Source of the DNA: Planctomycetota bacterium
Lineage (GTDB): Bacteria > Planctomycetota > UBA8742 > UBA2392
Assembly (NCBI GenBank): GCA_020638635.1
Contig: JACKIE010000011.1
Location: 914-64,913, forward strand
Length of the DNA stretch: 64,000 bases
Direction: 5' to 3'
This document shows positions 27,992-51,273 of the stretch, piece after piece. Made by a program: the position numbers and the translations under genes. A model generated the notes under the pieces. It made no database searches and was not told the DNA's origin. It was given only the letters and a program-made list of their open reading frames with translations. Each line of letters opens with the position of its first letter. Within the stretch, counting starts at the first letter, position 1.

Positions 27992-28555
27992 ATGGCTCGC
28001 ATCGAAGGTTCCAACCCGCGTGGTGTTTACCAGCGCGCCGTGTTCTGGTTCATGAAGCGTGTGCTCGGGCGCGTGCCTGAGCCCGTCAAAATCCTGGCGT
28101 TCAGCCCGACCGTGTTCAAAGGCCGCACCGGCATGGAGCGCGCCCTGATGACGCTGTCCGTGCCGCCCGGCCTGGTCACGCTGGCGCAGATCCGCGTGGC
28201 CCAGCGCATCGGCTGCCCCTTCTGAGTGGACATCAACTCTGCCGTGGGCAGCAAGTCGGGTCTCACACACGCGCGCATCGCGGCCCTGGCCGACTGGCGC
28301 AACAGCGACGTCTTCAACAGCATCGAGCGCGACGTGCTCGCCCTGGCCGACGCCATCACCGACACCCCCGCCAACGTGGACGAGGGCCTGTTCGGCCGCC
28401 TGCTGATCGCGCTGGGGCCGCGGCAGCTGGTCGAGCTGACCAACGCCATCGGCTGGGAAAACCTGCGCGCCCGCACCAACCGCGTGTTTGACGCGCAATC
28501 GGAAAGCTACTACGACGGCGCCCTGTGTATGCTGCCGGCCAGAAAGGTCGCGTGA
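27992..28555 (+). CDS. Carboxymuconolactone decarboxylase/AhpD-like family protein with in-frame UGA (28223-28225), a candidate selenoprotein (CxxU)
   Basis: ATG at 27992 with AGGAG at 27981. Two same-frame track ORFs (to 28225, and from 28226) are joined only by TGA, within RIGCPF[TGA]VDIN at the family's CxxC position. A hairpin lies at 28236-28256. The stop overlaps the sigma start (TGATG). Confidence 0.6.
28236..28256 (+). promoter_or_regulatory. SECIS-like hairpin downstream of UGA 28223
   Basis: ACTCTGCC-GTG-GGCAG(CA)AGT: 8 bp with a 2-nt bulge, starting 10 nt after the UGA. Its core is shared with 48840-48858. Confidence 0.5.
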
Positions 28556-29406
28556 TGCAGGAAGAAAGCTTCTTCGACCAGCAGCGTTCGTACCTGTTCG
28601 CGATCGCTTACCGCATGCTGGGCAGCGCCGCCGACGCCGACGACATGGTGCAGGAGGCCTGGCTGCGCTGGCAGCGCGACGACCGCAGCGGCGTCGCCAA
28701 CCCGCGCGGCTACCTGGCCGGCGTGGTCACGCGCCTGTGCCTCGACCGCCTGCGCGAGCTGAAGCGCCGGCGCGAAGAGTACGTGGGCCCCTGGTTGCCT
28801 GAGCCGCTGCTGACCCAGGCCCCGGCCGACGGCGGCGAGCTGGCGGAAAGCCTGTCACTGGCGTTCCTCACCATGCTGGAGCGCCTGACGCCCGTGGAGC
28901 GCGCGGTGTTCCTGCTGCGCCAGGTGTTCGGCTACGAGTACGCCGAGATCGCGGCCATCGTCGGTAAAACCGAGGCCAACTGCCGCCAGCAGTTCAGCCG
29001 CGCGCAGAAAGCCATCGCCGAGGCGCGCCCGCGTTTCGAGACTTCGCGCGAGGCCCAGCAGCGCATGCTGCAGGGCTTCCTGGAGGCAGTGGGCAGCGGC
29101 GACCTTTCGCGCATCGAGAGCATCCTGCGTGAGGACGTCGAGTTCATCTCCGATGGCGGCGGCAAGGTGATCGCCGCGCGCCGCGTGCTCCACGGCCGCA
29201 GCGAGGTTGCCAAGTTCCTGCACAGCCTGGCGCAGCGCAGCCCGGAGGGGGTCAGCTTCGAGTTCGCGCCGGTGAACGGGCAGCTTGGCCTGCTGCTGAA
29301 GCTGCAGGGCAAGCTGGAGACGGTGTTCGTGATCGAGTCGGTGGGCGGGACCGCGCAGACCATCCGCGCCATCCGCAACCCGGACAAGCTTGCAAGGCTG
29401 GCCTGA
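28555..29406 (+). CDS. ECF sigma factor, group ECF41 (SigJ-like) with fused C-terminal SnoaL/NTF2-like domain
   Basis: 283 aa with region 2 (YLFAIAYRMLGSAADADDMVQEAWLRW), the linker YVGPWLPEPL, region 4 (ERAVFLLRQVFGYEYAEIAAIVGKTEANCRQ), and a C-terminal extension of about 100 aa. Confidence 0.88.
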   Translation: MQEESFFDQQRSYLFAIAYRMLGSAADADDMVQEAWLRWQRDDRSGVANPRGYLAGVVTRLCLDRLRELKRRREEYVGPWLPEPLLTQAPADGGELAESLSLAFLTMLERLTPVERAVFLLRQVFGYEYAEIAAIVGKTEANCRQQFSRAQKAIAEARPRFETSREAQQRMLQGFLEAVGSGDLSRIESILREDVEFISDGGGKVIAARRVLHGRSEVAKFLHSLAQRSPEGVSFEFAPVNGQLGLLLKLQGKLETVFVIESVGGTAQTIRAIRNPDKLARLA

Positions 29407-48200: not shown

Positions 48201-48998
48201 ATGGAAAAAGCCATGAACAACGTATGCACTCTGACCCCGGATCGCGACTACCTGAAGAACATCGTGCGCGAGACATACACGGCCGTCGCGGACGACCCGG
48301 CCACGCGGTTCCACTTCCATGTCGGCCTGGAGTACGCGGTGCGGTTGCTGGGCTATGACCGCGCGGAACTGGAGTCGCTGCCGCAGATCGCCACCTCGCG
48401 TTTCGCCGGGCTTGGCAACCCGCTGGCGATCGGTCCTCTCCACCCGGGTGAAACCGTGGTGGACCTGGGCAGTGGCGCGGGCATGGACCTGCTTCTGGCC
48501 GCGCGGCGCGTCGGCCGGCTCGGACGTGTCATCGGTGTAGACCCGACGCCCGCCATGCGGAGCACCGCCTGGCAGGCCGCGTGCGAAGCCGGTCTGGCGG
48601 AGCAGGTCTGGATGCTGGAGGGCGAGGTGGAGTCGATTCCGCTGACGGACGGTGTGGCCGACGTGGTAGTCAGCAACGGCGTGCTGAACCTGGGCGTGGA
48701 TAAAGCCCGCGTCTTCCGCGAGATCGCCCGCGTGCTGAAACCGGGCGGGCGAGCCTACCTGGCCGACGCCATCATCGACCGCCCCTTCGGCCCCGCCACG
48801 CTGAGCGACCCAGCCCTGTGGGCTTCCTGAGTGGCGGGCGCTCTGCCGGTGGCAGAGCTGCACAGCCTGATGGAACAGGCCGGCCTGAAGGACGCGCGCA
48901 TCACGGCCGAGTTCAAGAGCTTCCAGGGTACCACGTCCGAACTGCAGGTGGCCCCGTCCATGAAGCTGCGAGCGGCCAACTTCACCGGACGAAAGTAG
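48201..48998 (+). CDS. ArsM/UbiE-like class I methyltransferase with in-frame UGA (48828-48830), a candidate selenoprotein
   Basis: SAM motif VVDLGSGAGMDL. The ORF stops at TGA within LWAS[TGA]VAGAL, where relatives have a conserved Cys. The frame stays open for 55 more codons to TAG 48996-48998. A hairpin lies at 48840-48858. Confidence 0.6.
48840..48858 (+). promoter_or_regulatory. SECIS-like hairpin downstream of UGA 48828
   Basis: GCTCTGCC-GGT-GGCAGAGC: a perfect 8-bp stem starting 10 nt after the UGA. It has the same CTCTGCC-GNN-GGCAG core as 28237-28251. Confidence 0.5.
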
Positions 48999-49110: not shown

Positions 49111-49233
49111 GCAGTAGTTTATCTAAACTCTTTGGAATCAATAGGTTGCAGTGCCGACCCGCAGGGTTGGCACCGGGCTTGCATACAGTACCACAACTAT
49201 TGAGCGGGCGCCTAAGCCCGGCAGGAGAACATC

Positions 49234-51177
<1,944 letters not shown>

Positions 51178-51191
51178 AATACGACATGCAT

Positions 51192-51227
51192 CTGCAATGG
51201 CGCCGGAACATCCCGGCGCCATTTGCA
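51192..51227. terminator. Hairpin terminator after full-length dnaK (also faces the convergent island operon)
   Basis: TGCAATGGCGCCGG-AACATC-CCGGCGCCATTTGCA: an 11-bp perfect core stem extendable with one bulge, followed by TTTGC. Confidence 0.6.
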
Positions 51228-51273
51228 TTTGCAGGCTCTTCCCGGACGTGTCAGGTGCAACCACGCCGATAGT

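Follow-up and report, generated by a model that had tools for sequence, protein, structure and literature searches.

Our analysis identified two genes, in a 64,000-nucleotide stretch of DNA from an uncultured planctomycete (the window; positions 914-64913 of one contig), in which an in-frame TGA is predicted to encode selenocysteine (Sec; U in peptides) and is directly followed by a hairpin of the selenocysteine insertion sequence (SECIS) kind. The gene at site 1 encodes an AhpD/CMD-like protein with a CxxU motif, and the gene at site 2 an ArsM-like S-adenosylmethionine (SAM)-dependent methyltransferase. We consider it very probable that both sites are bacterial SECIS elements and that their shared core is the variant that each of the two families carries in many phyla, not a peculiarity of this genome. 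The predicted features, all on the + strand, are the following.

27992-28555, +: AhpD/CMD-family (YciW-related) CxxU selenoprotein gene, from its read-through translation, Pfam CMD and NF053654
28223-28225, +: Sec-UGA of site 1 in the motif C-P-F-U, from aligned homologues
28237-28251, +: SECIS core of site 1, 5 bp, spacing 18 nt, with covariation over 18 homologues
48201-48998, +: ArsM-like SAM-dependent methyltransferase selenoprotein gene, 265 residues with U at residue 210, from TGA read-through, Pfam and NCBIfam
48828-48830, +: Sec-UGA of site 2 in W-A-S-U-V-A-G, from aligned homologues
48840-48858, +: SECIS hairpin of site 2, 8 bp, spacing 17 nt, 98.6% of cells paired over 9 homologues

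A sequence-only reading of the window had claimed that the two UGAs share one nucleotide-level signal, placed within 1 nt of the same distance and read in different codon phases, and this description was borne out. Both strings lie at 28223 and 48828, where they had been placed. The core, CTCTGCCGNNGGCAG, lies on the + strand at both places (28237-28251 and 48841-48855) and nowhere else in the window, and 100 dinucleotide shuffles of the window yielded no copy of it; the longer pattern TGAGTGG-N5-9-core returned the same two places as the core alone. If bases are numbered from the T of TGA, the first base of the core is number 15 at site 1 and number 14 at site 2. At site 1 that first base is the third of its codon (AA[C] TCT GCC), the peptide past the UGA is U-VDINSAVGSK and the core is translated N-S-A-V-G-S; at site 2 it is the second (G[CT] CTG CC.), the peptide is U-VAGALPVAEL and the core is translated A-L-P-V-A-E. 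In the whole genome, searched on both strands (3,034,132 bases, 21 contigs, 64.5% G+C), the core is present twice, at the two window sites, both of them Sec sites, and it is not a generic repeat; the shorter CTGCCGNNGGCAG occurs seven times.

The genome holds the genes for Sec incorporation. selB (332.7 bits), selA (548 bits), selD (390.7 bits) and a tRNA-Sec gene (73.1 bits) that adjoins selA all score over their curated cut-offs, and selD carries its own in-frame TGA. Since TGA ends 437 of 1272 long coding-like open reading frames (ORFs), it is an ordinary stop codon here, and genome-wide reassignment was rejected. Among the stops of these ORFs, TAG (597) is commoner than TGA (437) and TAA (238), which seems unusual at 64.5% G+C.

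Homologues and hairpins of the two genes

The site 2 protein matches Pfam Methyltransf_31 (2.5e-21) and NCBIfam NF008823, arsenite methyltransferase (1.8e-58; 198.2 bits, under the cut-off of 263), with the UxxG context present as U-V-A-G; the next-best NCBIfam matches are three ArsM-type selenoprotein "exception" families. Of the distinct homologues, 19 Cys forms have TGC or TGT at the position of its UGA, and 22 have TGA there. The hairpin consists of the 5' arm GCTCTGCC (48840-48847), the loop GGT (48848-48850) and the 3' arm GGCAGAGC (48851-48858). Nearby, a minus-strand ORF of 708 codons (49138-51264) matches Pfam NAD-GH (PF10712) at 5e-162 and lies opposite a plus-strand ORF of 647 codons (49234-51177); PF10712 is presumably an antisense artefact of Hsp70 genes.

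At site 1 the gene probably starts at ATG 27992, as suggested by the NF053654 profile, which begins at residue 40 of the read-through ORF, and it stops at TGA 28553-28555. The read-through protein matches Pfam CMD (5e-08; 33.3 bits, above the cut-off of 23) and NCBIfam NF053654, "YciW-related (seleno)protein" (1.1e-27; 96.9 bits, cut-off 310). At the position of the UGA, the 2 Cys-form homologues have TGC (CPFC), whereas TGA stands there in 21 distinct homologous sequences. Here the 5' arm is CTGCC (28239-28243), the loop GTG (28244-28246) and the 3' arm GGCAG (28247-28251); the CT at 28237-28238, which is common to site 2, is unpaired at site 1. The end of the gene is overlapped by 31 nt by a gene for a sigma factor of the extracytoplasmic function (ECF) type (Sigma70_r2 and r4_2; 28525-29406, +).

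Both hairpins lie inside the ORF, immediately 3' of the in-frame UGA. The rules for bacterial SECIS (bSECIS) elements, as set out in PMC13188914, are a loop of 3 to 9 nt, a stem of 4 to 16 bp, a G within the first two loop positions and a spacing of 16 to 37 nt; site 1 (5 bp, loop GUG, 18 nt) and site 2 (8 bp, loop GGU, 17 nt) fall within all of these ranges. Homologues were drawn from the order, class and phylum, and the codon aligned with each U was located. Stems that obey the rules and have 5 bp or more follow the codon in 21 of the 22 distinct ArsM-like TGA forms (mean 7.8 bp) versus 6 of the 19 Cys forms, which is about background, and in all 21 AhpD-like TGA forms versus neither of the 2 Cys forms. 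The motif itself is confined to TGA forms (8/22 ArsM-like, 11/21 AhpD-like) and is found in no Cys form.

The pattern of substitutions points the same way. In the 7-pair helix of 18 AhpD-like sequences, 88.9% of cells are paired, versus 37-52% when the 3' partner is slid by 1 to 3 columns; pair 18-28 is UA in 12 sequences, CG in 3 and GC in 3, and is unpaired in 0 of 18. The covariation score of this stem is 0.325 versus 0.108 for shuffles, and 0 of 500 shuffles reach it, so that the AhpD-like stem covaries among relatives. In 9 ArsM-like sequences the 8-bp helix is conserved, with 98.6% of cells paired, one compensatory pair and one G·U. The stems are spelled with codons that are rare in the long ORFs of this genome (TCT, 2.9% of Ser; GCT, 6.1%, and GCA, 8.0% of Ala), and in 28 AhpD-like matches from other phyla the third loop base is free (GTG 12, GTC 9, GTT 4, other 3) while the stem is fixed. 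The conserved stem, the Sec/Cys contrast, the covariation, the rare codons and the free third loop base, all observed directly, as are the hairpins in their position and the machinery genes, argue that selection acts on an RNA hairpin linked to the UGA. They support the claim of the sequence-only reading that the likeness reflects a cis-acting RNA recoding element rather than a by-product of protein similarity. In such an element, the C-terminal domain of SelB, carrying GTP and Sec-tRNASec, would bind the hairpin during translation, and the bound SelB would deliver Sec to the UGA at the A site of the ribosome. The predicted products would be one ArsM-like methyltransferase of 265 residues and one AhpD/CMD-like CxxU protein of about 187 residues.

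Several results weigh against reading the hairpins as SECIS elements. After 20,000 random in-frame positions, a perfect rule-conforming stem of at least 5 bp was found in 39% of cases and one of at least 8 bp in 3.8%, and therefore a hairpin alone proves little. Single-sequence folding gave z-scores of -1.61 at site 2 and -0.09 at site 1, which are not decisive. The ArsM-like stem is nearly invariant, and its weak covariation, with the one compensatory pair, is equalled by 49 of 500 shuffles. The homologues are related by descent, so that their counts overstate the independent support, and Rfam searches at both sites with E thresholds up to 10 returned chance matches only (E of at least 0.6).

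The frequency of 5-bp stems at random positions, together with a fold at site 1 no better than that of shuffles, is what might be expected if the TGAs were true stops, the genes split or dead, and the hairpins chance or unrelated structures. This is nevertheless very improbable: an in-frame coding signal runs on both sides of each TGA, Pfam and NCBIfam domains span both, the TGA occupies the catalytic Cys position of the Cys homologues, dozens of genomes retain both the TGA and its hairpin, even where protein identity is as low as 36-50%, and the Sec machinery of the genome is complete. The inverted repeat could instead be a site in DNA for a dimeric regulator, or some other palindrome acting at the DNA level, given that CTGCC-N3-GGCAG is a perfect DNA palindrome and that compensatory changes would keep an inverted repeat in DNA intact just as they keep a stem in RNA. 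We regard this as less probable still. The repeat lies within coding sequence at a fixed distance from the UGA, occurs in TGA forms and in no Cys form, and tolerates G·U (UG cells in both families), which fits RNA and not a DNA palindrome; the nine CTGCC-N3-GGCAG loci of the genome are without a common context. With both genes read as intact predicted selenoprotein genes, the consequence for annotation is direct, as standard gene callers would cut both at the TGA.

Range of the core and other Sec sites

In addition to the two window sites, we found 12 Sec-UGA sites elsewhere in the genome, which brings the count to at least 14, a lower bound, and makes this uncultured planctomycete rich in selenoproteins. 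A codon-usage (coding-score) filter passed 167 in-frame TGAs, of which 10 were chosen by eye besides the two in the window; one further site from a looser TGA list and that of selD were added, and the other 155 filtered TGAs lie outside this count. The predicted sites outside the window, from the genome scan with Pfam or selD, are the following.

C1:425263, C15:206841, C1:152382, C1:150393, C6:59327, C8:57720: Sec-UGA sites
C15:88693, C1:304388, C1:323009, C8:21369, C15:300012, C20:33883: Sec-UGA sites, continued

Leaving selD aside, the 11 extra UGAs fall in 10 ORFs, all 10 with Pfam matches. In nine of them the domain match spans the U: six are AhpC-TSA/redoxin proteins, one is DsbD-like and has two U, one is thioredoxin-like with an HMA domain, and one is a MacB/FtsX-type permease with a C-U pair. 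In the tenth, FG-GAP repeats flank the U on both sides.

Perfect hairpins of at least 5 bp that obey the bSECIS rules were found at 12 of the 14 Sec sites, with spacings of 16 to 27 nt and loops of GGU, GGA, GUG, GUC, GUU, GGUC, GGUCA or AGUU (GGUCU in some separate folds); if the stem is opened by one pair, several of the other Sec genes show GGUC, GGUCU or GGUCA loops. The motif of the two window sites was found at none of the 12 other Sec sites. In a fuzzy test, 10 of the 12 had at least 5 mismatches; two redoxin paralogues had 2 to 3, but at an offset of +7 and arising from the UGPC coding sequence. All Sec genes of the genome share the general architecture only, that is, a stem, a loop of the G(G/U)N type and a spacing of 16 to 27 nt.

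The proposal that the motif would serve as a genome-specific search pattern for further selenoprotein genes accordingly did not hold, as it matches only 2 of at least 14 Sec-UGA sites; selD, which had been named as a place to look, uses another stem, as do the redoxin, DsbD-like, FG-GAP and MacB-like Sec genes. The sequence-only reading had also named what would speak against it, a lack of further in-frame examples combined with the absence of the Sec machinery. The genome indeed holds no further in-frame example of the motif; the Sec machinery is present. The methodological caution is that a motif drawn from two SECIS elements fails to generalize even within one genome, whereas structural rules do. 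Because these rules alone are satisfied at 39% of random in-frame positions, Cys-form homology and conservation must carry the call.

Beyond this genome, the core has a wide range within the same two families. In 401 genomes sampled from the phylum, the pattern TGA-N10-13-TCTGCCGNNGGCAG gave 40 matches, and the same pattern backwards gave 20. Seventeen of the 40 are in-frame sites, all in the two families (10 AhpD-like, 7 ArsM-like). None of the 20 non-family matches inspected, out of 23 (those at G372:C183, G012:C35 and G019:C8 lay outside the inspected set), resembled an in-frame Sec site, the frames being short or non-coding-like.

A scan of all species, with one genome per species, for the stricter TGA-N9-12-CTCTGCCGNNGGCAGAG gave at least 119 stretches, and the 80 loci listed from it hold 86 matches: 29 ArsM-like, 32 AhpD-like and 25 others, several of which are the antisense reading of the same palindrome. 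The ArsM-like matches among those listed encode the peptide U-[IV]-[AG]-G-A-L-P-E/V-A-E; the 32 AhpD-like ones comprise 28 found by a first pattern plus L138, L196, L189 and L152. The family matches listed include ones from Acidobacteriota, Myxococcota, Binatia, Gemmatimonadota, Planctomycetota, Chloroflexota, Actinomycetota, Spirochaetes and Rokubacteria, and one of them, in a planctomycete metagenome-assembled genome (MAG; L184), has a peptide context identical to that in the window. Among the matches listed, none of five long-ORF candidates for a third family (L131, L143, L159, L174, L095) has a domain across the TGA. The core is thus the SECIS type of ArsM-like and AhpD-like families over a wide bacterial range, with no third family among the matches listed.

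One of these candidates lies in a Pirellulales MAG (L131:2372-2947), where a TGA with the full CTCTGCC-GTC-GGCAGAG precedes the start of a gene for a low-molecular-weight phosphatase (ArsC-like) by 12 codons and falls outside its domain; the motif may be a vestige, or else the end of a gene further upstream.

ArsM-like Sec forms of the phylum carry at least three unrelated types of SECIS hairpin: CTCTGCC; CCAGGGAG/CTTCCTGG with a GGUC-like loop; and GCCGGGCAG/CTGCCTGGC. These types are seen at loci in other genomes of the phylum (L053, L056-L058, L061, L062, L119, L124-L126, L128). In one genome of the same genus as ours, two ArsM-like Sec genes that are 47% identical stand head to tail (L020/L026; G013:C2:56209-57777) and share one SECIS type, one of the two stems having a G·U.

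The likeness between two unrelated families

How two unrelated families come to share a core is a minor unexplained point of this analysis, and the one of wider interest. By measures that take no account of the motif, the likeness is moderately unusual. When the 33 nt past each of the two UGAs are aligned locally, their score is equalled or exceeded in 0.8% of random pairs of in-frame coding windows from this genome and in 1.2% of pairs in which both members hold a SECIS-like hairpin; a position-aware count that allows one indel finds 19 of 33 positions identical, which 0.7% of random pairs reach. Estimates computed after the motif had been seen are lower for two hairpins of the genome, of 5 bp with a GNN loop, sharing a 7-mer arm (P = 6.5e-4), and stand at P = 0.012 for GTGG following a codon.

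Chance, convergence and transfer of the element are each a possible explanation. It is conceivable, though in our estimate unlikely, that the shared core (CUCUGCC-GNN-GGCAGAG, about 17 nt long, with a matching post-UGA codon) is a portable or preferred recoding module rather than a coincidence. The two families may have converged on a hairpin that is read well by many SelB proteins and so helps genes that move between phyla; or a segment of about 30 nt, UGA plus hairpin, may have been copied from one family to the other and now be read in another frame. Such a module would be consistent with the finding, in many phyla, of CTCTGCC-GNN-GGCAGAG past the UGA in both families (61 of the 86 matches listed), with a post-UGA codon on which the two families agree (GTG-G in this genus and, for most other lineages, ATC-G or ATT-G), with the low motif-specific estimates, and with the statement of a reviewer, in PMC13188914, that bSECIS elements are generally unlike one another.

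Most of what speaks against a module comes from the same comparisons. The unbiased measures of similarity reach only the 1% level or so, and the motif-specific probabilities are post hoc. The core was found in no third family, neither at the 12 other Sec sites of the genome, nor among the 20 phylum matches inspected, nor among the five long-ORF candidates listed. Within the genus the AhpD-like stem drifts by compensatory change (pair 18-28), so that the sequence itself is not required, the ArsM-like family uses several SECIS types, and the other Sec genes of the genome work with other stems. The two genes lie 20.6 kb apart in the window, and the families are co-located at none of the 29 ArsM-like loci and at one, spurious, of the 32 AhpD-like loci, on which grounds we also rejected a conserved neighborhood as the source of the likeness. 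Cases within each family are inherited, so that a coincidence need have happened only once. What probability is not given to a module we assign to such a single coincidence, then inherited within each family.

A fused ArsM/AhpD double selenoprotein (NF041537) was likewise rejected as the source: it scored over the cut-off in none of 301 phylum genomes. Against the window protein P0001 it reaches 188.6 bits (cut-off 510), and the two domains are not in one polypeptide. Our literature search found no paper describing a SECIS common to these two families, in a search that took in text and left figures and supplements, such as the SECIS alignment of PMC1088965, outside its scope.

If not due to chance, a core common to ArsM-like and AhpD-like genes across phyla bears on how SECIS elements originate and spread. 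A module would provide a concrete route from a Cys codon to a Sec codon, and a route by which Sec genes remain functional after horizontal transfer.

Relation to known systems

The C-terminal domain of SelB binds the SECIS elements of Escherichia coli fdhF and fdnG, which are hairpins past the UGA whose apical loops contain G and U; in the fdhF type the upper stem has a bulged U and the loop is GGUC. The window hairpins resemble them in following the UGA and in presenting G and U in the apical loop; they differ from the fdhF type in having perfect stems and triloops, without a bulged U or a GGUC tetraloop.

Both protein families are already known to contain selenoproteins. The arsenite methyltransferase with UxxG is listed as a bacterial selenoprotein family in PMC13188914, and CMD-like and AhpD-like CxxU proteins are listed there and in the Sargasso Sea study (PMC1088965). 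The site 2 protein resembles the selenoproteins of the arsenite methyltransferase family (NF008823, UxxG) in its U at the conserved Cys, its U-V-A-G context and its SAM-methyltransferase fold, but scores 198 bits against a cut-off of 263 and is therefore ArsM-like, not certified ArsM. The site 1 protein shares with the CMD-like/AhpD-like CxxU selenoproteins (PF02627, TIGR01926) and with NF053654 the C-P-F-U redox motif, the CMD/AhpD fold and a SECIS directly past the UGA. It differs from NF053654 in score (96.9 bits against a cut-off of 310), and from the CxxU proteins at large in that its gene lies directly upstream of, and overlaps, that of the ECF-type sigma factor.

With respect to the bSECIS consensus model of Zhang and Gladyshev, as described in PMC13188914, the two hairpins agree in their position within the ORF, their small loop with G first, their G+C-rich upper stem of 5 to 8 bp, their spacing of 17 to 18 nt and a host genome with selA, selB, selD and tRNA-Sec. 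They differ in having a strict triloop (GUG and GGU here; GGA in most other ArsM-like genes) closed by C-G. Furthermore, the model, as described there, asks for structure only, whereas here a primary sequence of 13 to 17 nt is common to two unrelated families. In conclusion, the two hairpins are SECIS elements of the ordinary bacterial kind; the selenoprotein families that carry them were known before, and what is new is their placement in an uncultured planctomycete.

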